A stretch of 64,000 nucleotides of DNA, from positions 32,001 to 96,000 of the IMG/VR virus record IMGVR_UViG_3300028840_006907. The stretch is one strand, 5' to 3'. The notes under the pieces were generated by a model that worked only from the letters and a program-made list of their open reading frames with translations, was not told the origin of the DNA and did no database searches. The stretch comes from a virus. Made by a program: the position numbers and the translations under genes. The number at the start of each line of letters is the position of its first letter. Within the stretch, counting starts at the first letter, position 1. Positions 3,047 through 62,025 of this stretch are shown here, in pieces.

Positions 3047-3238
3047 TTATTTACTCCTTGTTAAATCCTCAAGCTTTATCCCCAATCCACGTACCTGTTT
3101 AAATAACTCCGGGAAATCTCTCACTATTATAATCCTCGGCTTATCCTCAATCAGCCCATAAGCACTTAGCTTATCTGAACTATATCCTAAATTAACCTGT
3201 AACGATACTTTATCCATATTCTTACCTCCATATAACAT
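3047..3238 (-). CDS. small protein, paralog of 1690..1872
   Basis: Shared DKPRIIIV motif with 1690..1872. Confidence 0.45.
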   Translation of the reverse strand: MLYGGKNMDKVSLQVNLGYSSDKLSAYGLIEDKPRIIIVRDFPELFKQVRGLGIKLEDLTRSK

Positions 3239-3740
3239 TATATATACCCAATTACCTTTTTTATCCAGTAATATAACATTTTAATACTATCAAATACCAA
3301 CGTCCTATATGGTGCGTCCGTATTAATCTCTATTAAATCAGTCGTCCTATATCTTTAAACTATGGTCTATATAGTAATAAACACGATCTATAAATCAAAT
3401 AACAATTTTAAGGTAATCCTCTTACTCATCAATATCCATATCTTTATAATAAAAAACCCACACATAGCACCTATAAAAATGTGGAACCCTTTAAGGCATT
3501 TCTTAAGTAACTATGTATGGGCACTGAAAGGGATTTATACAAATCCCATTATTATCTTAATATATTAACTTACTATATGTCTATACCTATAAACATATCC
3601 CCCTATATATTACTAATTAGTAATATGAATGTAATTATCCCTATCCCCTATATCTAATAACCTATAAACTATCCATTAAGTATATCTGTATCCTATCCAT
3701 ATAATAACTCTGTAAGAGAAAATTAATATGTATCAGTATG

Positions 3741-19572: not shown

Positions 19573-19915
19573 CATGAATAATGAAAAAAGTTTAGTAACT
19601 TTCCGAAGTTTTAAGAAACTTTTTCTTTGACGTTTGTTTTTTGTGGCTTTCATGAGTAATGAAAAAAGTTTAGTAACTTTCCGAAGTTTTAAAAATTTTT
19701 TCTTTCATGTAAACTTTTCCTTGTCTACATGAGTAATGAAAAAAGTTTAGTAACTTTCCGAAGTTTTAAAAATTTTTTCTTTCATGTAAACTTTTCCTTG
19801 TCTACATGAGTAATGAAATTAGTTTGGTAACTTTCCGAAGTTTTAAAAATTTTTTCTTTCATGTAAACTTTTCCTTGTCTACATGAGTAATGAAATTAGT
19901 TTGGTAACTTTCCGG
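19573..19915. repeat. tandem repeat, 77-78 bp unit, about 4.4 copies
   Basis: Unit starts (catgag/catgaa) at 19573, 19651, 19728, 19805, 19882. Confidence 0.85.
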
Positions 19916-20397: not shown

Positions 20398-20628
20398 CAG
20401 GGAACAGGGAACTGAGCACAGGGAACTGAGCACAGGGAACCGAGCACAGGGAACCGAGCACAGGGAACTGAGCACAGGGAACTGAGCACAGGGAACTGAG
20501 CACAGGGAACCGAGCACAGGGAACCGAGCACAGGGAACTGAGCACAGGGAACCGAGCACAGGGAACTGAGAACAGGGAACCGAGCACAGGGAACTGAGAA
20601 CAGGGAACTGAGAACAGGGAACCGAGCA
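20398..20628. repeat. tandem repeat, 14 bp unit (cacagggaac[t/c]gag), about 16-17 copies
   Basis: Direct reading; two unit variants differing at one T/C position. Confidence 0.85.
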
Positions 20629-20872
20629 CCTGTATCTGTGATCTCGGAAAAGTTTCGGGAAAAAAATCGGGAACGGCTCAGGGCTGAGAAATAGGTATGA
20701 ATTTTTTTGGGGTATAATTTTTGGAGTTAAACAGTTGGGGAAATTGGAGTTATCTTATGTGAGGTGATGGGATAGTTTATGGAGGGTGAAAATTTTTTGG
20801 TATAGTTTGATGGAGAAACAGGTATAATACTTATAGGACGGAAAAATTTAAGTCTAATGGTTCGAGGATCTT

Positions 20873-31838: not shown

Positions 31839-32441
31839 ATGGAACAAGAGATGTTACATGGAATTAATATCATGGAATTCGGGAATACTATTCAGATAGC
31901 TGGTATTATCATGAATAGCGATAGTATGTCTTATTTGATCCCGTTGCCCGATGATGATATCTTGGAAGCAAAGAATTTCCCACTTGATACTGATCAGTGG
32001 AAGAAATTTCTCCGGCAAACAGATCTACTCGAAACGGAAGTTCTTGCCCAAGACGGGGATGGCTTTAAAAAGGCCATACTTCGTAAGAGTGCCCGTCAAG
32101 TTGATTCAAAGATATCTTGGGTAGTCTTTAAACGGGATGGCTATATGTGCCGTTACTGTGGCCGTGATGACGTACCACTTACTGTTGACCATTTGGTGCT
32201 CTGGGAAGATGGTGGTCCAACCATTGAAGAGAATTTGCTTTCAAGTTGTAAAAATTGCAATAAGAAGCGTGGAAGTATGCAGTATGCTGATTGGTTGAAA
32301 TCACAGCGATACAGAAATGTATCGGAAAATCTGTCTGAGGAAATAAAGAGAGCAAATGAAGCTCTTATCTCAACATTAGATGCTATTCCTCGAAAGTTAC
32401 ATATTCCATCACGTGGAGGGAAGAAAAAGAAAAAAAGATAA
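31839..32441 (+). CDS. HNH endonuclease
   Basis: CRYCG ... TVDHLV ... N ... CKNCN arrangement typical of HNH nucleases. Confidence 0.7.
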   Translation: MEQEMLHGINIMEFGNTIQIAGIIMNSDSMSYLIPLPDDDILEAKNFPLDTDQWKKFLRQTDLLETEVLAQDGDGFKKAILRKSARQVDSKISWVVFKRDGYMCRYCGRDDVPLTVDHLVLWEDGGPTIEENLLSSCKNCNKKRGSMQYADWLKSQRYRNVSENLSEEIKRANEALISTLDAIPRKLHIPSRGGKKKKKR

Positions 32442-38923: not shown

Positions 38924-39682
38924 TTGGAGACATCTGTGAAGTATAGCGTACTTGTACCCTACTATAAACGCCTAGGGCACCTACATAATACCTTTATTTC
39001 CTTTCTACACCATTATTCAGATAGAAATGATTATGAGGTTGTCATAGCAGAAGATTATAAAAATGTCCAGAATAAAAAAGACCATGACGGTCTATCAGAA
39101 ACCATTGAGAAATTCCGTGAAAAAATACCGATAATTCATTTAACTCTTTCTATGGAAACCTGGAATCCAGCTCATGGTTTTAATGAAGCTGCAAAGTGGG
39201 CTTCTGGTGAATATTTCGTTGTAACCAATCCAGAATGTTTCCATCAAGTGAACATACTGGCTGGACTCGATAAAGAATTTGAAGAAGACCCCAATGTCTA
39301 TGTTGTATGTGGTTGTATGAATTATGTCCGTTGTAATTTTTTTATTAAAAACTTTAATGATCTAAATGGAAAATTTCAGAGATGGTACCAACACTCAATA
39401 CATAGAGCAGCCCACTATCATTTCTGTTCAGCTATTTCAAAACAGAATTGGGTAAAAATAGGAGGATTCGATGAAGACTTTGCTATGGGTATAGCCTATG
39501 ATGATGTCGATTTTAAATTAAGCATTCAAAAAGCCAAGATACCCTTTCATATCCGGGATGACCTTCTTACTATACATATTGACCATGGTTCCTTCCCATC
39601 TCCTCCAAATGCTCAGAAATTAGTTAATCGAAATAGAATCACCTATCAAAGAAAATGGGAAGGAAGTAATGAATCTTACTAG
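38924..39682 (+). CDS. putative family-2 (GT-A) glycosyltransferase
   Basis: N-terminal YSVLVPYY and GGFDEDFAMGIAYDDVDF segments resemble GT2 signatures; start codon uncertain (TTG 38924 or GTG 38936). Confidence 0.5.
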   Translation: METSVKYSVLVPYYKRLGHLHNTFISFLHHYSDRNDYEVVIAEDYKNVQNKKDHDGLSETIEKFREKIPIIHLTLSMETWNPAHGFNEAAKWASGEYFVVTNPECFHQVNILAGLDKEFEEDPNVYVVCGCMNYVRCNFFIKNFNDLNGKFQRWYQHSIHRAAHYHFCSAISKQNWVKIGGFDEDFAMGIAYDDVDFKLSIQKAKIPFHIRDDLLTIHIDHGSFPSPPNAQKLVNRNRITYQRKWEGSNESY

Positions 39683-41762
39683 TTATACCGCAGCCGACAG
39701 TATCCCGATAAAATTGATTAAGAACTTTAAATTGTTAAAGTCCATGACAACAAAAGGAGTCATCTTACCAATCCATGTCCAGTTCATACCCACAAATAGA
39801 TGTAACATGAAATGTGGATTTTGTAGCTGTGCTGAAGATGACAGAAAAACAGAAATGTCCCTTAAAAATGCTAAGAAGATCATCAGAAAATTAAAAAAAC
39901 TCGGTACTCAATCCGTAACCATCACCGGAGGAGGAGAACCACTCCTTTATCCTCATCTCCAAGAATTGTTTTCTCTGTTTAAAGATGCCGGGATAAAAAT
40001 CGGTTTTGTTACCAATGGCCTCTTATTAGGTAAATGTACCTATGAAGATGTAACCTGGTGTCGGATTTCTAATTCTGATGAAAGAAAAATGGACATGGAC
40101 TATTATCACACAATAGCTTATGCTGTTGAAGATAACCCAAACGTGGACTGGGCCTTTAGTCATGTCGTTTCTCCAAAACCAAATATCTCCGAAATAAAAC
40201 GGATCATAGAATTTGCCAATCTCCATGATTTTACCCATGTCCGATTAGTAGCTGATCTATTGAATTATAAAGAAGTAGATTTAATGCAGTTAAAAATCAC
40301 TCTTCGAGATGAAAATGTCGATGATGATAAAGTCATCTATCAAAGTAGAAATACCCCGCTCAGAGGCGGAGACTGTTATATATGCTATCTTAAACCCATG
40401 ATAGGGGCTGACTGTAATGTGTACGCTTGTTGTTTAGAGGCTAATGAACCTGTATTAATCCAGAGAAATAACGAAAGGATGTATTTATCTATAAAGGATG
40501 TTGTTCCAGGGGATTATGCTTGTGAATATGGAAAGATTTTAAATGTGTTTCATAAAGAGGGTGAAGAAGGCTTGGAAATAGTTTTGCAAAATAATAGGAC
40601 TATTTATGTTTCGAAAGATCATCTTATGCTTAAATTGACAAACCCTGAAATTAGACATAAGAGAAAGAAGTTATTATCTGACTATGAATTAGATACAATA
40701 GAATCTTCTGAATTAAGAATTGGAGATTTACTTCCGGTCAAATATAAATATGATATTAGTGAAATAAAAGAAGATACTATATCTGAAGAAGAAGCAGAAT
40801 TAATAGGATATTATGTAGCTGAAGGTTGGTCCAATGAACGAACTTGTATAGTTGATAAAAAATATCCTACTAGAACTACCACTATAGGATTTATGCTAGG
40901 GAAAGAGTCAAGAGAATATATAAGAAGATTTGAAGAAATTTGTGATATTTTGAATCTAAATTTTTCTATGACTGAACGTAGAACTGGTATGCAGTATCAG
41001 ATAGGTGCACATAAACCCTACGATGACTTAATTGTACACTGTGGTAATAAAGCAGAATTAAAAAAGATCCCTCCTTTTATTTTAAACGGCTCTGATAAAA
41101 TAAAGTGGAAATTTATTCAAGGCTATTTTGGAGGTGACGGGAATTTTCAAACTCCTTCTAAAAGCTATGATGGTTTTAAAATGAGAATGAGTACTGTCAG
41201 TAGACAACTAGCTAATGATATAATTTATCTCTTTTGTACTTTAAATATTCATGCTTCTATGAGAGTTGAGAGACGTGAAGGAAAAATGATAATAGAAGGA
41301 AGAGAGGTAAATGCTAAAGATCGGTATCATATAAATATAGGGGGAGCCTATAATTTAGAAAAAGCCCCATTCCTAAATGTAATTCAAACAAAAGAAAGAA
41401 GTCCTAAAAGAGCCCTCGGTTTTTTGAAAGATGAGGATAAGGGCATTATGTTTGTACCAGTTAAAGAGATCAGAGAGAAAAAGTTAGGAAAATTAGTAGA
41501 CATTCAAGTGGAAGGTTCAAATAAATTTATATCTTCATTTGGTATAATAGTTCATAATTGTGGCGTCCAGTATGCTCTTAAAAAGCCTTCAAAGAATCTT
41601 CCTAAGAAACTGAGCCTAGGAAGTGCTTTTGATCTTGAGAAGATAATTGAGAACAGTAATAAGCCCCTGGACGGGAGCATGTGTTATCGATGCTATTATA
41701 GTAATTATAACAAGATACTAGGATCCATCCTGGATGATACCGATCATATGGAGTTTGTATGA
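39669..41762 (+). CDS. radical SAM enzyme interrupted by an intein
   Basis: CNMKCGFC (CxxxCxxC) and TGGGEPLL in N-extein; intein blocks described separately. Confidence 0.65.
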   Translation: MNLTSYTAADSIPIKLIKNFKLLKSMTTKGVILPIHVQFIPTNRCNMKCGFCSCAEDDRKTEMSLKNAKKIIRKLKKLGTQSVTITGGGEPLLYPHLQELFSLFKDAGIKIGFVTNGLLLGKCTYEDVTWCRISNSDERKMDMDYYHTIAYAVEDNPNVDWAFSHVVSPKPNISEIKRIIEFANLHDFTHVRLVADLLNYKEVDLMQLKITLRDENVDDDKVIYQSRNTPLRGGDCYICYLKPMIGADCNVYACCLEANEPVLIQRNNERMYLSIKDVVPGDYACEYGKILNVFHKEGEEGLEIVLQNNRTIYVSKDHLMLKLTNPEIRHKRKKLLSDYELDTIESSELRIGDLLPVKYKYDISEIKEDTISEEEAELIGYYVAEGWSNERTCIVDKKYPTRTTTIGFMLGKESREYIRRFEEICDILNLNFSMTERRTGMQYQIGAHKPYDDLIVHCGNKAELKKIPPFILNGSDKIKWKFIQGYFGGDGNFQTPSKSYDGFKMRMSTVSRQLANDIIYLFCTLNIHASMRVERREGKMIIEGREVNAKDRYHINIGGAYNLEKAPFLNVIQTKERSPKRALGFLKDEDKGIMFVPVKEIREKKLGKLVDIQVEGSNKFISSFGIIVHNCGVQYALKKPSKNLPKKLSLGSAFDLEKIIENSNKPLDGSMCYRCYYSNYNKILGSILDDTDHMEFV
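40431..41558 (+). mobile_element. intein with LAGLIDADG-type homing endonuclease domain (boundaries approximate; N-terminal Cys at 40428 or 40431)
   Basis: Starts CLEANEPVLI, ends GIIVHN followed by Cys; internal IGYYVAEGW and IQGYFGGDGNF motifs. Confidence 0.6.
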
Positions 41763-43617: not shown

Positions 43618-43983
43618 TCACGTGGTTACCGGCTTCTCTTTCTTTTTTAAGGTGCTTCTCAATTTCCTTGATCTGGTCTTGCATAAATTCTTTTTGTCGT
43701 CCCATTCTTCCAGACCTCCCTTATTGAGAGTATCATTTTTAAGCGTTAAGTTCAAGTCTCTTAATGACATACATGGAACATCCCGTACTCGTTTGGAGTT
43801 CCATATAGGGCATACAGTATGATTACACCTATTAGGACCTAACCTACACTCGACATTAAAATGTCCAGGTTCTCCGGCATAGAGGAAATTTCGTTCTATG
43901 CAGTGCGCCTGGAATACCTGAAAAGGCATTATCTTTTCGACACTTACCCCGTTTTTATGTGATTTATTATTCATATTTTTCAT
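43618..43983 (-). CDS. hypothetical Cys/His-rich protein (start moved out of CRISPR array)
   Basis: Track ORF 43618..44127 runs into array; ATG at 43981-43983. Confidence 0.3.
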   Translation of the reverse strand: MKNMNNKSHKNGVSVEKIMPFQVFQAHCIERNFLYAGEPGHFNVECRLGPNRCNHTVCPIWNSKRVRDVPCMSLRDLNLTLKNDTLNKGGLEEWDDKKNLCKTRSRKLRSTLKKKEKPVTT

Positions 43984-44019
43984 TCTAGGAATGTAAAGTA
44001 TTAGAGGATTATTAAGGGG

Positions 44020-47018
44020 AGGGAAACCCCGCTCAGATGCAGGGAAGAAGATTTCATTAAGAAGTTTTAGGAAGAGCCCCGCAGAGGAGGAACCTCGCAA
44101 GATGCGGGGAAAAGGAACTTCAGGCAATTGGCTGGGATTAGCCCCGCGAAGGTGCGGGGAAAACAGTTTCCATGAACTATATTAGGGAGAGCCCCGTTGA
44201 CACGGGGAAAAACCCGTCTTTACTTAGTGAGATCGAGGAAGGAACAGCCCCGTTGATACGGGGATAAAATAATATGACTTTTACGAATCCTCTAGGGACA
44301 GCCCTGCAGAGTGCAGGGAAAAGTAACGTCTGGGAATTGTTTAGGATTAGCCCCGCGAAGGTGCGGGGAAAGCCATAGATTTTATATTGACACAGGAAAA
44401 ACCCCGGTATAGTCCGGGGAAAAGTACGTAATCAAGATGTAAGAGGATTAGACCCGGCGAGTCCGGGAAAAGATTGGCCCAATCACTATTAAGTAGGGTG
44501 GGATAGCCCCGCAGAATGCAGGGAATAGATGCCTCACTTCATACCACTGCGTCAACCCCAGTAGAGTCCGGGGAACATGAGTGTAAATCTCTGTCGTAGG
44601 TTCAACCCCGGAGAGATCCAGGGGAAATGGGTACAACTTTGTGTACAAGGGGTAGCCCCGGAGAAATCCGAGGAAAATGAGTGTAAATCTGTGTTGAGGG
44701 TCCAGCCCCGCTCAGTGCAGGGAATATTAAGGGTCAAAACCGGTTGCCCCTGCGTCAACCCCGGTGAAGTCCGGGGAACATGAGTGTAAATCTCTGTGGT
44801 AGGATCAACCCCGCAGAGTGCAGGGAAAAATTGAACTTTTTAATCAACCCTGTAACAGCCCCGGAGTCAGTTTTGACAAGTCCGGGGGAATATCACTTCG
44901 TAAAGGAGTGGCTGTCAAGGGGGCAACCCCACAGAGATGTGGGGGAAAGTAAGCCAACGTTCCGGCATAGGCATAGCCCCTGAATTTACAGAGGGCAATT
45001 TTTCCAGTGTCCAGAAGAAGATGCAGGGAGAACCCCGGAAAGTCCAGGGGAAAATGTGTCACAGAACAACTCTTTGTGATCTCCAGGGTGAACCTCGCAG
45101 AGGTGCGGGGGAAAAGTGTCAATGAATACCAGTATGAGTCAGCCCCGGTATAGCCCGGGAATAATTACTTCTAGTCTGATAGAAGGTGCAACCCCGGGAA
45201 GTCCGGGGAAATCGGTCATAGCCATCTGGACCAGGAAGAACCCCGGTGAGATCCGGGGAAAAGGACGTTTAAATCCTGACATAGTAGCTAACTGAGGCGT
45301 AGCTCCGGTCGGGTCAGCCCTGCAGAGAGCAGGGAACAAACATAGGTAATAAATCGGCACGTGACAGCCCCGCAGAGAGGCGGGGATATATAGCGTGAGT
45401 TGCAGGGTAAGGTTCAACCCTTGTTTACCAAGGGAAAAATACCGGCAGATAAGAATTTAGGATGACCCCCGGTGAAAGTCCGGGGAAAATAATTAATACG
45501 CAAAACAGCAGGGCCAGTCCCGCGAGATGCAGGGAATGTTCAGCCAGTTTGTGTAATATTTCAGGAGACGGTGGTGCAACCCTGTCAAGGACAGGGATAT
45601 GCAACATCTGTGGCTCTACGAGGATCAGCCCCGGCAAGTCCGGGGAATTATCTTTTTATAAATGCCAAAAATAACAGTTGGGAGGGGCCAATTCCGCTGA
45701 TGCAGAAAGACATTTCATAATTAATATATTTATGGAAGAGCCCCGGTGAAATCCGGGGAAGTCAAGTAATTACAGCTCGCTGACCACTGGGGGTAGCCCC
45801 GGTAAGATCCGGGGAAAAGTTTGTTTTGAAACAAACGCTAGGAACAGCCCCGCTCAGGTGCGGGAGAATCACTGCATATTTGGTTAATGGCCCCCCTGAG
45901 TCAATCCCGCTCAGGTGCGGGGAAAATAAAGAGATAGACTAATTCAATATGCAGGAAGAACCCCGCTATATGCAGGAAAATTTAAAAAGTATGGATATCT
46001 CCTTGAGTCAACCCCGGAGATCCAGGGAAATGTAGGCACTCGTTGTCCTTTGTCGAAGTGTGAAGGGCAAACCTCGTTGATACGAGGAACAAATTTAGTT
46101 TTACTTTTGAATAAAAGTGGTCAAGCCCCGCTCAGGTGCAGGGAATAGATAAGTATACCGACGATAGCCAGGACAGCACCTGTGGTTTAGCCCTGCATGT
46201 GCAGGGAATAGTTGAGTTGAAGATTGAAGAAAAAGATAAAGTAGGGTCAGCTCTGCATGTGCAGAGAATAGCCTTTCTTCAAGCGTTGACTTGGGAGTAG
46301 GTGGGGATCAGCCCTGCACATGCAGGGAATAGAATGGTGAATCAAATTCCATTTTGTCAAAGAACGGCGACAGCCCTGCCAGTGCAGGGAATATGATTTT
46401 AACGATGGTAAAATTGGGAAGGGGTCAGCCCTGCACATGCAGGGAATAGTCGCTAGTTCAAATCCAATCGCCCCGACAGGATCAGCCCTGCATACGCAGG
46501 GAATAGAAAATACTGACGATAAACTAGCGATATGGGATCAGCCCTGCATACGCAGGGATATAGCTTGACGAATGGCCGTTTTAATGCCAGGAGTAACCCC
46601 GCTGCGAGGAATAGTCATTTCAAATATATAGGTAAAGCCCCGCGAAAGAGCGGGGGTATAATATGGCGGATTTTGTTCTATTGGTGGAATCCGGGCCATC
46701 CCCGTAGATTGACACGGGGAGATCTTTTAGAAATCTACCAAGGTGCCTTTCCGGAGTCATCCCCGTATATACGGGGGAGATTTCAATTCAGGGAATTTCG
46801 GTACAAAATTGGTCGGTTTATCCCCGTATACACGGGGAATATTGTTTCAATAGGGCATAGCAGATCTAGGATCGGGGAATCCCCGCAGGGGCGGGGAACA
46901 TCTCGGATTTATTAATCAAATTCAAACGTTTTTCGGGGAATCCCCGCAGGGGCGGGGAACATTGTTTTAAGAGGTGGTAGTTACCTCGTAGGGGAATCCC
47001 CGCAGGGGCGGGGAACAT
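44020..47018 (-). CRISPR. CRISPR array 1, roughly 50 repeat-like units, strongly heterogeneous; leader-proximal repeat ggggaatccccgcaggggcggggaacat (28 nt, 3 identical copies)
   Basis: Periodic hairpin repeats with 23-33 nt spacers; leader-proximal copies at 46874, 46935, 46991; minus-strand reading matches the I-E TTCCCCGC-N4-GCGGGGAT form. Confidence 0.8.
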
Positions 47019-47127
47019 ACTAAGTCATAATGCCATTCAAATCAAAGGTTTATAGGAACCCTAATTTTCTACCAAAGAAAAATGTACTTGTCATGTATAA
47101 ATGTCAAAGAGCGTCAGAGAGAAATCC
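47019..47127 (-). promoter_or_regulatory. CRISPR leader 1, with a ~55-bp core shared with leader 2
   Basis: accctaattttctaccaaa...tataaatgtcaaagagc shared with 54587..54683; contains TTGACA on minus strand. Confidence 0.5.
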
Positions 47128-49359
47128 CTAGTGGATATACCGAATCCATTCATATCGAATTTTCATCGTTTTATAAGGAGCTTTTTTTCTCCCTGGAAAT
47201 ATGTTTCCTTCAAAAAGGAAAAATTTTTGAACAATTTTAAATTCAGCGTTTGATGGTGTCAAGCTCTGTGGTGCATAATCCGAACGCCAGTAATTATTAC
47301 AATATATAAATTTTTCTTCTCTGTCTTTTTGTATAAGGCCCGGAAACACCACTAAAACTATCTTTTCGTTTTCAATAACAATATCCCCTTGATAAATAGC
47401 TATTTCTAAATCCAGACCATCCTGCTCTATCACACGAGCATATTTCGAGAGTTTCCCATCAATCTTTACTTTAGCTTTAGGGGGAATATCAAAAGTTATC
47501 CATTCACCTTTTATGTCCTTAATGCTTTGAATAGGTTTTTTAACTGGAATTTCTTGAAAGACATGATCTTGGTATTCTGCTTTTTTAAGGATTTCTCCAT
47601 CTTTTTCCATATTAAGCAATAAAGCCTTTTCCATGATGTCTTTAAGTTCATAGAGATCTTTTTCAGTTAAGGGCTCTTTTGTTCCGAATACGATGGAACC
47701 TACATTCTCTAATCGAGCGATTTTATCAAAACCCTGTTTCCGGACAAAGTCTATGGTAATATGTTCTATTTTTCTATTTCTTGAAAGTCTTATGATTCTT
47801 ACAAATTCAGTTTTAATTGTGTCTTTGAAATTATCAAAACTTAAATGATCTTCTACGTAGGGATGATACAAATCCGCTATAAGACTTAATAAAATTTCTA
47901 TGTCTTCAGGTTTATCCTGTTTACGGTTGTAATCATAAGCTTTAATAATTTCTTGTCTCATTTCCATTAATATATCAGGAGCCATTATTTCACTTAAACT
48001 GGTAGATCCTTTTTTGTCCCGATAAAAGGGAGCTGTTGGAAGTAAGGGAATCCTGATAGCAGCACAAAGTTCTGACATTACAATTGAGGTTAAGAACAAA
48101 TTCAATCTGTCTGAATATAATGCCCTGATATTATTACGTTCTTCTTTTTTAATAGGTGGAACATAAATGTATAACCATATTTTATCTTTTTTAGGGTAAC
48201 ATCTGAAAATACGAAACATTATTTGAGAGAAGGTCACCTGACTCTTTCCATAACTTGTATTATGTAAAACAGCAGCAGGAGGCCAATCATACCCTTCATA
48301 GAATATTCTGCAAGATACGGCGACCCAGTATTTTTTATGATTACGTCTCAATAACTCTCTATTTTTTTTCTGAGTTTCCGGTGTGACTAAATCCAGTACT
48401 TTGGACGCAGGATATATTTCGTGAATAGCTTTTAAATATTTTTTAAGGGTTCCTTCCTCTCTGAACCGGTTCCCCATGTCAGGTAATATGACAATGTGTC
48501 TTTGATCTTTGTGCTCTTTCATATATCTAATGATCTGAGTAAGGGGATCTTTCCTATAGTGAGTGAAACGGAAATTGAATTCTTTGATTTTTATGATTGA
48601 GAGATAGTCATTTAATGGGATAACCCATTTTTCAAAATGATGTTTATAAGCATTGGGGACTATTTCTCCTCTGTCTGTGCGGTGGTAAGTAGCTGTATAA
48701 AAATTTACGTTACAAGTAGGTTCATGGATGGTACATACATCTCTGACAAAATCACCCAAATGAGTGGAATCTAGTGGGGTTGATTTTGAATGATGGCATT
48801 CATCTACATGTACAGTTAAATTTCTAAGGGCTTTCTTTTTTTCATAGTTGGTTAATTTTTCCCAGGTCATGACAAACCCTCTATGGGTAGCTGTAGCAAT
48901 AGGGCCTGTTATATGTTTTTCATTGTACGGGTATTTTCGAGGATCTGCTAAAAGGAATTCTTTAAGTCCTTTAATGGATTGAGGGTTTTCACTATTGAAT
49001 TTATGTTCTTTTGGTACTTCCCACAATCTTACCATACCTTTATATTTGATTTTTATTTGTCTATTTTGGGATCTGCAGAAATTTTCACCTATTTCTATTG
49101 TTGGTGCGATAAAGATATGTTTTCGAGTATTTTTAGATATTATGATTTCATCCAGGGATATGCATACTGCTAAAAAAGTTTTGCCGACTCCCCCTGGTGC
49201 ATCAAAGATCATGTATCTGAATTTTTTCCCATATTCTTTTGCATTGCATTGCCAGCCAGAGGGTATCATGATCCCTGATTCAAGTTTTTTATTATAGGTA
49301 CCAAGGTCAACCGGTTCTATTTTAATAGATTGCTGGAAAAGCGGTAATAGCTTTTTCAT
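47128..49359 (-). CDS. cas3: SF2 DExH helicase, Cas3-like, without HD nuclease domain
   Basis: Motif I FDAPGGVGKT, motif II VDECHH, motif III TAT, motif VI-like QIMFRIFR; sits between cas6e and leader 1; GAGAGGA SD. Confidence 0.5.
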   Translation of the reverse strand: MKKLLPLFQQSIKIEPVDLGTYNKKLESGIMIPSGWQCNAKEYGKKFRYMIFDAPGGVGKTFLAVCISLDEIIISKNTRKHIFIAPTIEIGENFCRSQNRQIKIKYKGMVRLWEVPKEHKFNSENPQSIKGLKEFLLADPRKYPYNEKHITGPIATATHRGFVMTWEKLTNYEKKKALRNLTVHVDECHHSKSTPLDSTHLGDFVRDVCTIHEPTCNVNFYTATYHRTDRGEIVPNAYKHHFEKWVIPLNDYLSIIKIKEFNFRFTHYRKDPLTQIIRYMKEHKDQRHIVILPDMGNRFREEGTLKKYLKAIHEIYPASKVLDLVTPETQKKNRELLRRNHKKYWVAVSCRIFYEGYDWPPAAVLHNTSYGKSQVTFSQIMFRIFRCYPKKDKIWLYIYVPPIKKEERNNIRALYSDRLNLFLTSIVMSELCAAIRIPLLPTAPFYRDKKGSTSLSEIMAPDILMEMRQEIIKAYDYNRKQDKPEDIEILLSLIADLYHPYVEDHLSFDNFKDTIKTEFVRIIRLSRNRKIEHITIDFVRKQGFDKIARLENVGSIVFGTKEPLTEKDLYELKDIMEKALLLNMEKDGEILKKAEYQDHVFQEIPVKKPIQSIKDIKGEWITFDIPPKAKVKIDGKLSKYARVIEQDGLDLEIAIYQGDIVIENEKIVLVVFPGLIQKDREEKFIYCNNYWRSDYAPQSLTPSNAEFKIVQKFFLFEGNIFPGRKKAPYKTMKIRYEWIRYIH

Positions 49360-49628: not shown

Positions 49629-50273
49629 TTAATAAGATTTATACGGTGCAATAAGCATCATACCACATCCGAAACCTTTACTCTTACCAATTCCATTATA
49701 AATAGTATTCACAAAAAGATTTTTATTGACTACCTGAAGGACTCCTCGTAAATCAATACTGAAAAAAGATACAACTTTACCATCTTTTTTTTTGAATTTA
49801 CAGAATTGAAAAGATTGAACGGAATGCTTTTGAATCATATTTTTAAAACCGTAACTTTGGCCACGTTTCTGAAGCCAATTCTTTGAGGATTCGTGAGCAA
49901 TGAAATTCCAATTATAGGGTTCATCAAGAACTTTCATTTCATTTGCCAGATCCGTCATGATTGAAACCTTTTTCCTGGTTTTCAATTTACAAACTTCGGC
50001 ATTGAGTCTGAGATCGTATTGAAGAAATATTCCAGATTTTAAATTATTTAAATCGAATACTTTTGTTTGTGTAGTGTATTCGTCCTCTGGAGGATTTGGT
50101 TTCTTTTTTGATATGATATAAAGTTCACCATTATAGAGATAATAAAGGAAATCTCTTACCCTGTTAGATCTTTGATCACCAAAAAATTCCCAGACTTTTT
50201 GATGAAGCTCATATATACCTTCGGTGGGAGAATATCTTCTCAAGCTGTCACTGTAAATTTTACTCAGAAACAT
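49629..50273 (-). CDS. cas6e: Cas6e (CasE) crRNA endoribonuclease
   Basis: MFLSKIYSD..YELHQKVWEFF..RDFLYY and C-terminal GIGKSKGFGCGMM match recollected E. coli CasE; start moved to ATG 50273. Confidence 0.75.
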   Translation of the reverse strand: MFLSKIYSDSLRRYSPTEGIYELHQKVWEFFGDQRSNRVRDFLYYLYNGELYIISKKKPNPPEDEYTTQTKVFDLNNLKSGIFLQYDLRLNAEVCKLKTRKKVSIMTDLANEMKVLDEPYNWNFIAHESSKNWLQKRGQSYGFKNMIQKHSVQSFQFCKFKKKDGKVVSFFSIDLRGVLQVVNKNLFVNTIYNGIGKSKGFGCGMMLIAPYKSY

Positions 50274-50910
50274 TCGATACCTCCTTCCATCCCATATACT
50301 CAATTCGGGATCGGTATTGTTTGGGACCGGTTACCTGATCAAAACGTTGATTGCTTTTTACTATTTTGATACTGGTATCGGTACCTTCCCAAAATATTCG
50401 GTTCTTTTCACGCCCTTTAAGACTACCATTAAGAAATTCAGGAAGAGAGTACTGTTCAAACGCCTCTGAGAGGCTCTCAGCCTTAACGATCTTAGGATCG
50501 GGTGGTATGTCATAGGAACAGCATTTCCTTCCAAGAAAGGGGGTATAGATGGGCCTATTAAGGGCTTCCATTATTTTCTTCAAAGTATAGGGACAGTTTT
50601 CATTCTCCCATATACATACGGTAAAGATGGCATTGACTAGGTAAAATCTATTCGAGACAATTCCTGGTCCGACTCTGACAATATGGAAATCTTTTAGAAT
50701 AGTACCAGGATTATCTTCCCTACAGGCAAATCCTAGTTGGGCAATCTGAGTTAATTCTTTCACCATTTCTCTTGAGACTCCAAGAGAAGCAGCGATTAAC
50801 CCGCTTACGCCAGATTTGGTAGGGTGATCATCTGTCTTTCGGGTATTACCCTGAAGGGGGAGACCCCAGGCGGATAGAGTACCCGAAAGAAGGAATAATA
50901 AATAATTCAT
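50260..50910 (-). CDS. cas5e: Cas5e (CasD)
   Basis: LSGTLSAWGLP, PTKSGVSGLIAASLG, YTPFLGRKCC match recollected E. coli CasD; AGGAG SD. Confidence 0.75.
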   Translation of the reverse strand: MNYLLFLLSGTLSAWGLPLQGNTRKTDDHPTKSGVSGLIAASLGVSREMVKELTQIAQLGFACREDNPGTILKDFHIVRVGPGIVSNRFYLVNAIFTVCIWENENCPYTLKKIMEALNRPIYTPFLGRKCCSYDIPPDPKIVKAESLSEAFEQYSLPEFLNGSLKGREKNRIFWEGTDTSIKIVKSNQRFDQVTGPKQYRSRIEYMGWKEVSNVSE

Positions 50911-50933: not shown

Positions 50934-52019
50934 TTAGAAATCGATGAATTTAATAAGTTCGTTAAGTGATCCTTCTTTTGTGAGTACATTCAAGATCCTA
51001 TAATCCATTTCATGGTAACATGAATCAAAACTACTTTTCATGTCAAGAAGGGCTTTGACAGCATTTTCCATAACCGCAGGACCTTTAATAGGAGTATGGA
51101 AGGCTTGACAGAGACTTCGTGGGGCAGTTGGAGCTTTTTCGATCATAACGAATGCTGGCCATGTTTGACTATCAGCACATCTGTTTTTATTAGCTGAGGG
51201 GGATGAAGTGGTTAATACTTCGACTATCTGTCGGATGGTTTTGATAGCTAGTTCTTTATTACCTTGAAGATTTTTCGTTAAGAGCTTGGAATTGATTACA
51301 AAGAAACTATAATAGACACCCTGGGTAAAATAGAAATTATCTAGGTGACCTGAACCTTTGGTTCCTTCTAATCCAAGGTTATCGGTAGCTGTAAAATAGT
51401 CGGTTTGGACAGATCCTATATCATTGACAGTAAAAGCGAAATTTGAGGACAGTGAAGCTTCAACATCATATTGGGGCAGTTTTGCAATCATGCGACCGGT
51501 AAGGGCTGTTCTGATTCCTGTATTTTCTTTTAAAAAGAAGAATTCTTGATCAGTGGGTTTATGCCCCTCAATAATTTTGTCAATCAGTTCTTCAATATGT
51601 TGTCTTTCGCTCGGTTGAATTTTAATGGTTTCGGTTTTAAGAAGATCAACCTTTTTTTTCTTTTTCTTTGTATTTTTATCATCTTCTTTTTCAGTGTGCT
51701 TTTTGATATCAACAAAAGTACCAATAAATTTAAATGCGTATTCTTCAGCTTTTTTAGGTGATATTCCACCATCAATTAATCTTTTCTCGACATATTTTCC
51801 AATAAGAGGAGTCTGAAGACCTATATCGATTTCGCACCTTTCAAATAGAGCCTTGTTTAAATCATATTTTCGATTTTGTGAAGACGAATAACCTCGGTTG
51901 GTATCATTAAGTTTCATTGTTTTAGGACGTCCGTCCTGGCCTCGGTTTATGCTAGATACAGCTACACCAGTGAGAAGGTGAATTAACCAGTAGGGGTCTT
52001 TAATAATAGTTTTAGACAT
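50934..52019 (-). CDS. cas7e: Cas7e (CasC) backbone subunit
   Basis: SINRGQDG, SSSQNRK, ALTGRM, FTATDNLGLEGTKGSGHLD match recollected E. coli CasC. Confidence 0.8.
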   Translation of the reverse strand: MSKTIIKDPYWLIHLLTGVAVSSINRGQDGRPKTMKLNDTNRGYSSSQNRKYDLNKALFERCEIDIGLQTPLIGKYVEKRLIDGGISPKKAEEYAFKFIGTFVDIKKHTEKEDDKNTKKKKKKVDLLKTETIKIQPSERQHIEELIDKIIEGHKPTDQEFFFLKENTGIRTALTGRMIAKLPQYDVEASLSSNFAFTVNDIGSVQTDYFTATDNLGLEGTKGSGHLDNFYFTQGVYYSFFVINSKLLTKNLQGNKELAIKTIRQIVEVLTTSSPSANKNRCADSQTWPAFVMIEKAPTAPRSLCQAFHTPIKGPAVMENAVKALLDMKSSFDSCYHEMDYRILNVLTKEGSLNELIKFIDF

Positions 52020-52045: not shown

Positions 52046-53989
52046 TTATATGTTATTTGAATATTCTCTTTCCCAGTAGAACTTGACATCTTTGCTCCAG
52101 TGGGCATACCCTTCCATGAAACTGATGATGTTAAATCCTTCCATTCGAGAAACAACATCAGCAAATACTTTCCAGTTTTTTTGTATATCCGTTTTATTGA
52201 AACTCATCATTTCGTCAACATGTCGGCGGTTAATTTTTTGAGAACCCATTTGGGCACCGAAAGATTGAGAAAAATCCAGATCCTTAGCTTTAAAAACAAT
52301 TAGTAGAAGAGGTACGAAAAGAGTCTTCATATCTTCTGATCTTAAAGCAGGGAAATGCATAGACATTTCTAAAATAAAATTCAAATAAAGGTCTTCATGT
52401 TTTAAGATATCGATGTCAAAACATCGGGTAAATACCCTATGTTTTTCTGTATTTCTAATAGTCCCGTACCAGGACAGGAATGGTTTGGTAAAGACCTGGT
52501 TAAAATGAGGTAGGTTTAATTTCCTGTATTCGATATGGGCGAAATTCTCATATTCTAATGGTTGTAGTTTAAGAGGTTTAACAACTTTTTTATTTAAGGT
52601 TTCGATAAATTGTTCCTTAAAATATTTCTGTAAACCTCTCTTTTCAGTACCTACATTTTTTTCAAATGTATCGAAAGCTTTAACTACCATCTTTTCCAAC
52701 CATTTTTCGATATTATGATTCTTGAGAACTTCATAGAAGTATTCTTCAGTTTCTGTCAGAAATTCGTGAAATATTAAAGGTTCGGTTTTATCAGTTCCCC
52801 AGAACTTTCTTATATAATTACAGGTATACCATCCTATAAGATATGAGTGTTCTCTGATATTTAAAGTAAACGCACTATCTTTATAGAGTTCTTCTGGGAT
52901 ATCGAATTTATTTTCCTCCCATCCAAAGAGTTTGGCTTTAGCCATATTATAACCGAAAGTCCATAATCCGAAATCAGTTATTCCAAGATATTCTCGGTTC
53001 TCCATGAAATGACTCACCACTAAAGCTGGAGTTAATTTTTTAGCTGGTAGTAGATAGGTCACAAGATCGAGATGGCTGGTAAAGTCCAGGGGTTTCCGGA
53101 AACCTGTTTCTTTGCCTTTTATAATGGGTGAAAGGATATGACGTGGTTTGACATAACAGTTACCATAATTCCTCGTTTTTATCTTTCTAACCATTAATTT
53201 GGAATGATTGCCACAGATAGTACATGATTCATCAAATTTATCAAAGATAAGATGAATACGTAGAGGCATTTCCCAGAGCGGGTAATAAGGATTCATCTCA
53301 TCCAGGGAAACAGTAGCTTTGTTTTTACTATCAACGGTATCACTAAGCCATGGGAGTGTTACACCTTTTGGATTTCCTCCGAATTCAAACATGGTCTTTT
53401 TAATAATAACATTAGACCATATTGTTTCCCATAACGTGGAACCGGTAATAATAGTGGTAAGAGAACCATTGGCACCGGCTGTTATCGAAGTACGGTATCC
53501 TTGGCCTCCCATAATGGCACTGAGTTGATTAAGATAAAGGGCAATTGTAGCACAGGATTGGCAAAAAGTATGTATCTTTGCTTTTTGGAAGAAATCTTTA
53601 CCAGCTTTAATTGTCGCTGTCCCTGGAGTATCAAAGAGGAGATTACCAACATTTACGATTCTTTCAAGGTCCTGTGGCCGTTTATCCTGTAAAAAACGAG
53701 GACCTTTGCCATCTAGTTCAAAGAGTTTTGGTTTAAGTTTTTCTAGGATGGCTTTTTGGTTTGGTGCTTTTTTGAATAGTTTTTTCCATTCTTTCTTACT
53801 TGTAGGAGCAAGATAAGTGTTGAAAAAACCTATGAGAAGCCGTACACCTACAGCATTGAAATCGGGTCTACCGAAATCGAGAGCTATTATAGGGTTATTA
53901 GGTTTTGAAGTTATTTTGTAGGGTGGAATGTTTTCCCTGGTACCGTCTTTTCGGATGACGGGGATCCAAGGGTCCTTAATTACATTCAT
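52046..53989 (-). CDS. cas8e: Cas8e (Cse1/CasA) large subunit with C-terminal extension, possibly fused Cse2/Cas11
   Basis: N-terminal MNVIKDPWIPV, CQSCATIALYLNQ, ESCTICG match recollected E. coli CasA; 647 aa vs about 500 in CasA; GGAGGT SD. Confidence 0.8.
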   Translation of the reverse strand: MNVIKDPWIPVIRKDGTRENIPPYKITSKPNNPIIALDFGRPDFNAVGVRLLIGFFNTYLAPTSKKEWKKLFKKAPNQKAILEKLKPKLFELDGKGPRFLQDKRPQDLERIVNVGNLLFDTPGTATIKAGKDFFQKAKIHTFCQSCATIALYLNQLSAIMGGQGYRTSITAGANGSLTTIITGSTLWETIWSNVIIKKTMFEFGGNPKGVTLPWLSDTVDSKNKATVSLDEMNPYYPLWEMPLRIHLIFDKFDESCTICGNHSKLMVRKIKTRNYGNCYVKPRHILSPIIKGKETGFRKPLDFTSHLDLVTYLLPAKKLTPALVVSHFMENREYLGITDFGLWTFGYNMAKAKLFGWEENKFDIPEELYKDSAFTLNIREHSYLIGWYTCNYIRKFWGTDKTEPLIFHEFLTETEEYFYEVLKNHNIEKWLEKMVVKAFDTFEKNVGTEKRGLQKYFKEQFIETLNKKVVKPLKLQPLEYENFAHIEYRKLNLPHFNQVFTKPFLSWYGTIRNTEKHRVFTRCFDIDILKHEDLYLNFILEMSMHFPALRSEDMKTLFVPLLLIVFKAKDLDFSQSFGAQMGSQKINRRHVDEMMSFNKTDIQKNWKVFADVVSRMEGFNIISFMEGYAHWSKDVKFYWEREYSNNI

Positions 53990-54210
53990 ATGATACCTCC
54001 GCGATTTATGAATGGTTGCGGAAATTTAATTATTTATGTTTTTACTCAACTTATTTATGTTTTTTTGCTTAGCTGAGACTTTGATTTAATTTTTTAATTA
54101 ACCCATTAGTTATAAAGTTAATTATAATCTAAAATAAATATAAATGCAACATTTTTTCAAGTACTTTATATATAACTATAATATTTCGAATTGTTTATAG
54201 CATGAGAAAT

Positions 54211-54240
54211 ATTTCCTCCGTTTACACGGAGGAAATTTAG
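54211..54240 (-). terminator. hairpin CCTCCG-loop-CGGAGG at distal end of array 2
   Basis: Inverted repeat; followed on minus strand by A/T-rich sequence rather than a clean U-tract. Confidence 0.25.
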
Positions 54241-54264
54241 GATTATATCAGAGATGGGCTCTGA

Positions 54265-54586
54265 GACAGCCCCGGTAAAGTCCAGGGAAATAAAAATTAG
54301 TGATAATTCGGGAATCAGCAGGAGGAGAGCATCAGCCCTGCGTATGCGGGGAATAGTGTTATCGTCTTACAGGATGTAAAGCAGAGACAGCCCCGCGTAT
54401 GCGGGGAATAGAAATTAATACATCTCATAAAATCTAGCATCAGCCCCGCGTATGCGGGGAATAGTTATTTATCTATACTTCCTACAACTCCCATAACGCA
54501 TCAGCCCCGCGTATGCGGGGAATAGCTCGTTGGTTTTCCCATTCCACAAAAGTTCAACGCATCAGCCCCGCGTATGCGGGGAATAG
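54265..54586 (-). CRISPR. CRISPR array 2: 6 repeats (distal one degenerate), repeat gcatcagccccgcgtatgcggggaatag, spacers 25-33 nt
   Basis: Repeat copies at about 54265, 54329, 54385, 54437, 54498, 54559; 61-bp period for the three leader-proximal units. Confidence 0.85.
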
Positions 54587-54683
54587 ACTATAATATAATT
54601 AGTTGAAAATCAGAGAGTTACAAAGACCCTAATTTTCTACCAAAAAAAGTACTTGCCGTTTATAAATGTCAAAGAGCTTATCT
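54587..54683 (-). promoter_or_regulatory. CRISPR leader 2 with the conserved core
   Basis: Shares ~55-bp core with 47019..47127. Confidence 0.5.
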
Positions 54684-61102: not shown

Positions 61103-61312
61103 CTATTTCAACATTTTAAAATGCTTAAAGGTATCCCAAAAGAAATTTATTGTACATATGATAAAATAGCCAGGTATCAATTTTAATAAGAGTTCTTTTT
61201 TTGTTTTATATTCTCCTAACCATAAATGCCCAAGAACAACAGTCCATTGCATTAATAAAAAATTCGCTATTACAAATAATACCCATACTAATCCTATAGA
61301 CATACTTACCAC
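61103..61312 (-). CDS. small membrane protein
   Basis: Hydrophobic. Confidence 0.3.
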   Translation of the reverse strand: MVSMSIGLVWVLFVIANFLLMQWTVVLGHLWLGEYKTKKELLLKLIPGYFIICTINFFWDTFKHFKMLK

Positions 61313-62025
61313 ATTTCCCCAATGGCCTTTTTCTGTTTATTGGTTAATTTATAAACCAGCTTGCAATTAATACATTTCATTCTAGTTATATTCCCAAATA
61401 TATCATAAAGATCATCAGTTACCTTTCCAATCTTGTGACAAGAGTTTTGCTCACCTGCAGAAATGGTCCCATCGATATTAACTGATGGAGTGCACATTTT
61501 ACCCATCATTGCAAGACCCATCATAACTTGTGAAAGAGAGTTCGCCCCTGAATTTCGGCATAAGGATCTAAGGTTAAAACAATTAGGTGCTTTAGAGGTT
61601 ATTGGAAGTTCATTTTTAATGGCTCTTCCAAAGGGTGTTATCACTCTAAGCTGATGCTCATATGTAATATTAGGATGTTGTATAATAGGTACTTCTTTTG
61701 GATAGTACCGAGGATCATTGGTAATTTGAATATTTATTCCAATTTGAATGATTTCTTTTTTTAATGTTTCATCTTCAAGAAAAGTACCATTCGATAAAAG
61801 TGCTGGCATCAAACCTATATTTTTGGCTCTATTAATCATTTCAATAATGTCTGGATGTGAAGTTGGCTCTCCGCCTGTAAGCATTATTATAGGCATTTCA
61901 AGATTTTTTAAATATCGCAATGTCTGGTCATATGTTTTAAGATCCATATGTTCACCTTCCGGACATGCATTCACTGAACAATGAATGCAATTCATATGGC
62001 ATTTTTCAGTGACTCTTACGAGCAT
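61306..62025 (-). CDS. radical SAM domain protein
   Basis: CHMNCIHC (CxxxCxxC) and TGGEPTSHPD. Confidence 0.65.
   Translation of the reverse strand: MLVRVTEKCHMNCIHCSVNACPEGEHMDLKTYDQTLRYLKNLEMPIIMLTGGEPTSHPDIIEMINRAKNIGLMPALLSNGTFLEDETLKKEIIQIGINIQITNDPRYYPKEVPIIQHPNITYEHQLRVITPFGRAIKNELPITSKAPNCFNLRSLCRNSGANSLSQVMMGLAMMGKMCTPSVNIDGTISAGEQNSCHKIGKVTDDLYDIFGNITRMKCINCKLVYKLTNKQKKAIGEMW

Follow-up and report, generated by a model that had tools for sequence, protein, structure and literature searches.

Related 20-nt spacers in a type I-E-like CRISPR array without adaptation genes match the active-site box of Xer-type recombinase genes and may form a conserved set of guides

The subject of this work is a 64,000-nt stretch of the virus record IMGVR_UViG_3300028840_006907 from the IMG/VR database (positions 32,001 to 96,000 of the record; hereafter the window, with its own numbering from 1), which contains two CRISPR arrays, designated array 1 and array 2, with type I-E-like cas genes between them. 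Three 20-nt spacers in the old part of array 1 were found to be closely related over their whole length, and their sequence, read as CRISPR RNA (crRNA), encodes the catalytic-tyrosine box of Xer-type recombinases. The explanation favoured here, at a probability of about 0.6, is that these spacers belong to a conserved family of duplicated short guides that covers Xer/integrase recombinase alleles and is carried, on a giant mobile element, by a type I-E-like system that lacks adaptation genes. Such a system seems to hold hard-wired, multi-copy guides against a conserved gene. The array and the spacers in question are located as follows.

44019..47017, minus strand: CRISPR array 1, approximately 55 hairpin repeats, oldest and most degenerate at the 44019 end and newest, with three identical repeats, at the 47017 end
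44578..44597, minus strand: spacer 11, TGAGTGTAAATCTCTGTCGT on the plus strand; crRNA ACG ACA GAG ATT TAC ACT CA, that is, T-T-E-I-Y-T-(H)
44628..44647, minus strand: spacer 12, TGTACACAAAGTTGTACCCA; possible decayed fourth member of the family
44678..44697, minus strand: spacer 13, TGAGTGTAAATCTGTGTTGA on the plus strand; crRNA TCA ACA CAG ATT TAC ACT CA, that is, S-T-Q-I-Y-T-(H)
44781..44800, minus strand: spacer 15, TGAGTGTAAATCTCTGTGGT on the plus strand; crRNA ACC ACA GAG ATT TAC ACT CA, that is, T-T-E-I-Y-T-(H)

The 12-mer GAGTGTAAATCT occurs in the window in three exact copies on the plus strand, at 44579, 44679, and 44782; a control by shuffling gave three matches at no more than one mismatch in 1 of 100 shuffles. 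An earlier sequence-only reading of this DNA had seen the common sequence in three spacers, placing it at 44578, 44687, and 44771, which is off by 1–11 nt. Repeat boundaries were placed by the hairpin, with an 8-nt handle on one side and a 4-nt flank on the other, resulting in 55 units and 54 spacers. With these boundaries, spacers 11, 13, and 15 are each 20 nt long, and the in-register identity is 19/20 between spacers 11 and 15 and 17/20 for both of them with spacer 13 (pairs at 15/20 or better expected by chance: 0.013). In the all-against-all comparison of the 54 spacers, the three pairs have local scores of 18, 15, and 15, the next best pair reaches 10, and 0.01 pairs scoring at least 15 are expected per shuffled array; spacers 11, 13, and 15 are the sole strong family in this comparison. 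The spacers had earlier been described as beginning alike and then diverging. The similarity spans the whole spacers, and what stands of that description is that differences follow after approximately base 15–20, most of them in the handle of the next degenerate repeat. The sequence-only reading had named as its refutation a similarity confined to a few bases through mis-set boundaries, and the comparison did not give this result. Spacer 12 matches spacer 13 at 13/20 positions in register (0.35 pairs at 13 or better expected) and may perhaps be a decayed member of the family. The three related spacers alternate with other units, the distance from spacer 11 to spacer 15 being 203 nt, and Tandem Repeats Finder reports a period of 50 with 5.2 copies and 62% matches at 44551–44813.

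The likely target of the family was assessed in a genome scan with the pattern ACNACAGARATTTACACTCA, using one genome per species and a chance estimate based on 8 variants and approximately 1.2e12 positions. At least 120 exact 20-nt genome loci were detected, against approximately 9 estimated by chance. In 113 of the 120 listed loci, the match lies in frame in the sequence ...L-G-H-x-S-x-x-T-T-E-I-Y-T-H...; all 120 are within 2 mismatches of spacer 11, which has 4 exact matches among them, and spacer 15 has 15. The matched open reading frames (ORFs) belong to the Pfam PF00589 tyrosine recombinases, and 100 of the 100 ORFs tested match Xer-type NCBIfam models, one of them above the XerD equivalog cut-off. 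Invariant alignment columns of these ORFs include L-G-H and T-T-E-I-Y-T. Bacteroidota make up approximately 70% of the 80 records listed. The same pattern gave 4 matches in IMG/VR, all of them in integrases, whereas the first IMG/VR scan, made with the 17-mer ACASAGATTTACACTCA without the common GAA codon, gave 7 matches, which is about the number estimated by chance, and none of these extends to the full 20-nt spacer. Taken as coding sequence, the crRNA is sense code for the box that carries the catalytic tyrosine in Xer-type recombinases, XerD, XerC, and related integrases included, in a codon usage found mainly in Bacteroidota. The match to the target runs from the first base after the 8-nt handle to base 20; these limits coincide with the boundaries set by the hairpin, and both the boundaries and the 20-nt length are thereby confirmed independently.

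As for related systems, a search of IMG/VR with the products of two window genes, cas8e and a superfamily 2 (SF2) helicase gene, found no relatives. Relatives were found through the helicase (locus L003, 59% amino acid (aa) identity; L004, 55%) and through the sulfotransferase beside the old end of the array (L017, L018, L020, and L144). The orthologous array of locus L003 contains three adjacent members of the spacer family, at 3484, 3515, and 3566, one of which is ACA ACG CAA ATA TAC ACT CA (TTQIYTH). In that of L020, the sequences ACC ACA GAA ATT TAC ACT CA at 952 and ACT ACA GAG ATT TAT ACT CA at 1150 match spacer 15 at 19/20 and 18/20 positions, respectively. Adjacent genes of these lineages have an identity of 47–55% at third codon positions. 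Since the spacers remain 18–19/20 identical while third positions are near saturation, the spacers are evidently under constraint. By the same comparison, the family predates the split of the three lineages; its copies are thus conserved, and they are probably working guides and not filler. Conservation extends to several neighbouring spacers of the old part.

44830..44850, minus strand: spacer 16, GGGTTGATTAAAAAGTTCAAT; conserved neighbour of the family
45213..45232, minus strand: spacer 23, GGTCCAGATGGCTATGACCG; its first 11 nt match L020:742 in register without a difference, and a second L020 copy is at 693
45601..45620, minus strand: spacer 30, CGTAGAGCCACAGATGTTGC; 18/20 in register to L018:721, with differences at positions 3 and 9

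Spacer 16 has a 23-nt exact match, handle included, at L003:3262-3284 (E = 5e-8); further relatives are at L003:3358 and at L020:849 and 1083, so that each of the two loci holds two copies. The order of the family relative to spacer 16 is collinear in three lineages. Locus L020 also shows duplications of its own at 693-763 and 820-1170, including the pair GGCCCAGATGAATTCGAACGAT and GGTCCAGATGGATTCGAACGAT and a larger block in which spacer-16-like and family spacers are duplicated together; the duplication of old guides therefore recurs in this group. At the same locus, L144 contains a regular type I-E array with a 29-nt repeat and spacers of approximately 32 nt, from which it follows that the lineage once acquired spacers normally, or did so in trans.

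The differences between related spacers are not spread evenly when the base that follows the handle is taken as position 1. The six family members compared vary at sites 1, 3, 6, 7, 9, 12, and 15. Of these seven sites, five are third positions of codons (p = 0.007); at the remaining two, T is replaced by S and E by Q, and both replacements occur naturally in the motif. Among the homologues of spacers 2, 6, 16, 23, 25, and 30 in L003, L004, L018, and L020, 23 of 31 differences fall at positions divisible by 3 (p = 4e-6). This pattern suggests that the conserved guides all target coding sequence in one codon register, in which bases 6, 12, and 18, left unpaired by Cascade, lie at wobble positions. 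The copies have not diverged by free decay: their differences sit at wobble positions of a target that codes for protein.

The way in which the copies arose can be traced from the repeats that flank them, and two pairs of duplicated blocks were identified.

44547..44627, no strand assigned: duplicated block, copy A (end of spacer 10, repeat 11, spacer 11, start of repeat 12)
44750..44829, no strand assigned: duplicated block, copy B (repeat 15, spacer 15, repeat 16)
44103..44162, no strand assigned: older duplicated block, copy A (spacer 2 at 44114-44133 and repeat 3)
44312..44371, no strand assigned: older duplicated block, copy B (spacer 6 at 44323-44342 and repeat 7)

Over 81 alignment columns, the first two blocks have an identity of 88.9%. 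Among the 55 repeats, numbers 11 and 15 are reciprocal nearest neighbours, with 90% identity against a median of 57%, and the handle tgcgtcaa is restricted to units 11 and 15. The older blocks are 87% identical over 60 nt, and their repeats 3 and 7, 93% identical, are likewise reciprocal nearest neighbours; spacers 2 and 6 agree at 14/20 positions in register (0.07 expected), with differences mostly at positions divisible by 3. In both pairs the flanking repeat variants travelled with the copies at 87–89% identity, as expected of slippage or unequal recombination, and at least two of the three copies (spacers 11 and 15) arose by copying of a repeat-spacer block. A tandem duplication of four units (units 11–14 against 15–18, and 2–5 against 6–9) was considered and rejected, as only one unit per block is similar. 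Duplication of spacers within CRISPR arrays by slippage or recombination is known (PMC11472070, PMC4524480), and slippage affects approximately 3% of the spacers in CRISPRCasdb (PMC11472070). The cases in these reports are alike in that whole units are copied with their flanking repeat variants. They differ in that the reported duplicates are mostly identical and thought to be quickly lost, whereas the copies described here are old, shared by several lineages, and different at the wobble positions of the target. The sequence-only reading had proposed that the array grows by such block duplication. The copying itself is real; as a mode of growth it does not hold, since at most 6 of the 54 spacers belong to the two duplicate families and 48 are unique.

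Array 1 as a whole consists of GC-rich hairpins at periods of 49–65 nt. Its repeats are far from near-identical, the median pairwise identity in units 1–40 being 57%, and only the newest units are identical to each other. The repeats are identical beside a leader-like block and most degenerate at 44019, so the part that holds the family had correctly been called old. The layout of the repeat on the minus strand is that of type I-E, as seen in the E. coli repeat, namely, a short flank, a 6-bp GC stem, a loop, and 8 nt. In the 55 stems, 305 of 330 positions are Watson-Crick pairs, with at least 9 distinct fully paired versions of the stem; among the other stem positions, G:U pairs number 16 on the minus strand and 4 on the plus strand (binomial p = 0.006). 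The G:U bias and the compensatory stem variants point to selection for a hairpin in minus-strand RNA, even in the old part. The array is also co-oriented with the cas genes and has a leader-like block in common with array 2. These features indicate that array 1 is type I-E-like, though degenerate, and that its reading strand is the minus strand, where it would be transcribed and processed. Spacer lengths in the array are trimodal, with 22 spacers of 20–21 nt, 13 of 26–28 nt, and 12 of 31–35 nt. The short class predominates in the old part, as it does in the old array parts of L003, L018, and L020, though not in L004 or L144. The modes of 20, 26, and 32 nt correspond to 6n + 2, which fits the gain or loss of single Cas7 subunits.

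Several irregular features of the array region were recorded in addition. Long loops or spacer-like inserts inside a hairpin are present at 44859-44887 and in L003 at 3190-3225, 3345-3385, and 3471-3510 (an example from L003 is cccctggtttacag-AGATACACTCTCA-cagggg); such odd hairpins look like deletions between short homologies, with half-repeats fused to spacers. The ORFs of 92–169 aa listed inside or across array 1 (43618-44127, 44844-45122, 45139-45417, and 46532-46915), one of them without a family match, are almost certainly spurious. Spacer 45 (46449-46477) contains GTTCAAATCC, which resembles a tRNA T-loop, with no T-arm fold seen by eye. A tRNA scan of the window found no tRNA gene, and no Rfam family was found at array 1.

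The genes and other elements beside array 1 are arranged as follows.

47059..47112, minus strand: leader-like block of array 1, adjoining the newest repeat; the same block stands beside array 2, read directly
47128..49359, minus strand: SF2 helicase gene, 743 aa, Pfam ResIII/DEAD, in the place of type I-E Cas3
49629..50303, minus strand: cas6e, PF08798 (E = 5.9e-32), PADLOC Cas6e (E = 1e-34)
50260..50910, minus strand: cas5e, PF09704 (E = 1e-26), PADLOC Cas5e (E = 6e-39)
50934..52019, minus strand: cas7e, PF09344 (E = 1e-52), PADLOC Cas7e (E = 2.5e-53)
52046..53989, minus strand: cas8e, 647 aa, PF09481 (E = 4.6e-48), TIGR02547 (116 bits against a cut-off of 70)
54210..54590, minus strand: CRISPR array 2, approximately 6–7 units, regular repeats CATCAGCCCCGCGTATGCGGGGAATAG on the plus strand
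54627..54677, minus strand: leader-like block of array 2, the same as at 47059-47112

Five minus-strand genes between the two arrays thus encode Cas8e, Cas7e, Cas5e, Cas6e, and the SF2 helicase, the type I-E effector set being recognised by Pfam, PADLOC, and NCBIfam matches with E values of 1e-26 to 1e-55. The adaptation module had been reported as missing, and indeed no strong match to a Cas1 or Cas2 model was found in the window; nor were Cas3 (HD) and Cas11/Cse2 found, the Cas families named above being the only ones seen (90 ORFs of at least 75 aa, PADLOC; among 25 of 36 families listed). Cas8e is approximately 150 aa longer than the Cse1 models, which match only its first 375 residues; given this length and the lack of a cas11 gene, a Cas8e-Cas11 fusion is possible. 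In the helicase, ResIII/DEAD signatures begin at about residue 45, with an ATP-binding motif near residue 57, and the PADLOC match to Cas3 is marginal (E = 0.006). The family search detected no HD nuclease domain in this protein, and no sequence match was found in PDB. According to the Foldseek analysis of its predicted model (predicted local distance difference test, pLDDT, 67), generic SF2 helicases alone are similar. Seven relatives of the helicase were found among 5.8 billion clustered proteins, and those inspected adjoin cas6e of the same gene set. Near more distant helicase relatives there is an extra gene of approximately 200 aa before and one of approximately 110 aa after, neither with a family match.

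The leader-like block of approximately 52 nt closes the cas-proximal, high-coordinate side of both arrays, and in L004, L005, L008, and L009 the arrays are preceded by a related block, gctctttga.a. A sigma-70 promoter scan of the leader gave nothing; a pattern scan for it gave no matches in IMG/VR and two in a metagenome collection, both of them in unrelated genes and due to chance. The window comes from a metagenomic contig of 388,651 bp, and an identical array is present in a second assembly. Several window ORFs match phage orthologous groups, no phage structural hallmark was found in this window, and the element is likely a huge phage. Elsewhere in the window, an intergenic stretch contains tandem repeats at 19573-19914 and 20404-20629, one with a 77-nt unit (4.4 copies, 93% matches) and the other with the 14-nt unit ACAGGGAACTGAGC (16 copies, 93%). 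Radical S-adenosylmethionine (SAM) proteins with viperin-like PADLOC matches are encoded at 39669-41762 (plus strand) and 61306-62025 (minus strand), the larger of them bearing an intein with a LAGLIDADG domain, and several HNH endonuclease matches occur at other sites.

In the explanation favoured here, spacers 11, 13, and 15 would be paralogous copies of one old 20-nt guide, copied through slippage or unequal recombination between repeats and then retained for a long time. Cas6e would cleave the minus-strand transcript at the conserved hairpins, and each 20-nt crRNA would nucleate a shortened Cascade composed of Cas8e, Cas5e, fewer Cas7e subunits, and Cas6e. The ability of E. coli Cascade to accept shortened spacers (PMC5159557) speaks for the view that guides of this kind can function. 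This complex would bind recombinase genes, either of the host chromosome (xerD-like) or of rival integrating elements, and the SF2 helicase, in the stead of Cas3, would act on the R-loop, with silencing or degradation of the target as the possible outcome. The benefit of several copies may be a wider range of target alleles recognised between them; position 3, the one site at which spacers 11 and 15 differ, lies in the seed of a type I-E guide. A more tentative extension is that the old half of the array could be a germline-like, vertically inherited set of short (6n + 2 nt) guides to conserved coding motifs of host or rival genes, in which duplication builds a degenerate guide set and not the array. 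It is equally tentative that the surviving guides of such a set would share one register, with the remaining wobble positions, seed position 3 included, covered by paralogous copies.

Several observations weigh against this explanation. In the two closest partial relatives by sulfotransferase identity, L017 and L018, the assembled parts of the arrays contain nothing of the family at up to 5 mismatches. The repeats flanking spacer 13 are not clearly co-duplicated, and a separate origin of this spacer is possible. The three bases upstream of the listed genome matches are heterogeneous (AAA 26, ACA 15, ACC 12, and others), and the matched genomes may not include the true host. The guide is in the sense orientation and so would pair with the template DNA strand, not with mRNA. 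The proposed benefit of allele coverage would rest on few differences, spacers 11 and 15 being one base apart. Finally, a length of 20 nt is at the lower edge of interference in E. coli: with shortened spacers, E. coli Cascade gave interference above 20 nt and priming down to 14 nt (PMC5159557).

Four other explanations were considered. The one that survives best, though unlikely, is that the three spacers were acquired separately from different recombinase alleles at one position defined by a protospacer-adjacent motif (PAM), the adaptation proteins acting in trans (host Cas1-Cas2) or having since been lost. In favour of this, all variants seen in the family encode valid forms of the motif, the flanks of spacer 13 are not clearly common to those of spacers 11 and 15, and acquisition in trans is described for type IV-A3 systems (bioRxiv 10.1101/2023.06.23.546257). 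Yet the same rare repeat variants stand on either side of spacers 11 and 15, with three different units between the two, a result not expected from polarised acquisition, and the collinearity with spacer 16 in three lineages argues for inheritance. In addition, no type I-E adaptation complex is known to insert 20-nt spacers.

It is quite unlikely that the copies are products of neutral block duplication followed by drift, without any particular function. This was the model of the sequence-only reading, in which an array lacking Cas1-Cas2 grows in this way. The block copying, the lack of cas1 and cas2 among the 90 window ORFs, and the known frequency of slippage (PMC11472070) are all in agreement with it. 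However, with 48 of 54 spacers unique, duplication adds at most approximately 4 units; the differences sit at the wobble positions of a coding target and not at random; and neutral copies would hardly keep 18–19/20 identity between lineages near synonymous saturation.

A further explanation, and a very doubtful one, takes the old array part for a dead relic. The recombinase match would then record one ancient acquisition from an integrating element, with no present role, and the conservation would be only apparent. The strong degeneration of the old repeats and the lack of the family in the assembled array parts of L017 and L018 fit this idea, as does the fact that no target was found for any other spacer in searches of the window, IMG/VR, GenBank phages, and the listed recombinase loci. 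More specifically, the other spacers have no match outside the family in the 120 listed recombinase loci; no site in the window is within 3 mismatches of any spacer, and the few sites with 4 mismatches are at chance level; BLAST of the cas region and array against GenBank phages gave no match or chance-level matches only; and the spacer 30 pattern gave 0 matches in IMG/VR. In a six-frame search of all loci collected, the peptides RRATDV, GPDG[YF][DE]R, [SK]Q[LF]P[ED]V, and GLI[KN][KN]F, which represent other conserved spacers, match arrays alone. A relic, however, would not be expected to show compensatory changes that maintain its hairpins, together with a bias towards G:U on the strand that is transcribed, to hold spacer lengths at 20, 26, and 32 nt, or to conserve several old spacers in register with 23 of 31 differences at every third base. 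As for chance similarity or mis-set repeat boundaries, the shortness of the shared word is all that speaks for them, and they are wholly improbable as an explanation, since the all-against-all comparison gives 17–19/20 over the full length of the spacers with 0.013 pairs expected, the exact 12-mer occurs thrice, and the flanks were co-duplicated.

Compared with known systems, the one described here resembles type I-E of E. coli in the usual order cas8e-cas7e-cas5e-cas6e, in the repeat hairpin of 6 GC base pairs followed by 8 nt, and in the period of approximately 61 nt in its newest part. It differs in that the window contains no HD cas3, cas1, cas2, or separate cas11 and has an SF2 helicase at the Cas3 position, that the repeats are very heterogeneous, and that most old spacers are 20 or 26 nt long and not approximately 32 nt. 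Type IV-A systems, in which interference involves the helicase DinG and no nuclease, are similar in that they lack adaptation genes, have a helicase partner, process hairpin repeats like those of types I-E and I-F with Cas6, and are carried on mobile elements. Assignment to this type was rejected: its characteristic proteins Csf1, Csf2, and Csf3 are not seen here, the effector proteins strongly match Cas8e, Cas7e, Cas5e, and Cas6e, the one type IV model matched, typeIV_Cas6, is matched weakly (E = 4.5e-7, against 1e-34 for Cas6e), and the helicase is of the ResIII/DEAD kind with no DinG signature.

The closest case described so far is the type I-C variant reported from huge phages (Al-Shayeb et al. 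2020, PMC7162821). It is likewise found on very large elements, has no Cas1/Cas2, and has a helicase for Cas3, and phage spacers against host genes were described in the same work. In contrast, the present system has type I-E effectors, Cas6e included, and 55 units against a phage median of six repeats. The target search in that work required alignments longer than 24 bp, so that 20-nt guides would have gone unseen there. The 6n + 2 length modes, which fit the loss of one or two Cas7 subunits, recall the shortened-spacer Cascade of Kuznedelov et al. 2016 (PMC5159557); those complexes were engineered, whereas here short spacers are the natural majority of the array and are conserved among relatives. 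No description of an old, multi-copy family of 20-nt guides against the recombinase active-site box was found in the literature searched.

Spacers of CRISPR arrays usually record recent invaders and do not last long. In the present case, guides that outlast synonymous saturation in the neighbouring genes are carried by an effector that has no adaptation genes. The results suggest that target searches with length cut-offs above 24 nt would miss such guides. If these guides work, the system would be a natural Cascade with 20- and 26-nt spacers, so far known from engineered crRNAs. For the mobile element, Cascade would then be a weapon or regulator of fixed and broad range, directed at a conserved gene family and tuned by duplicates that differ at wobble positions.

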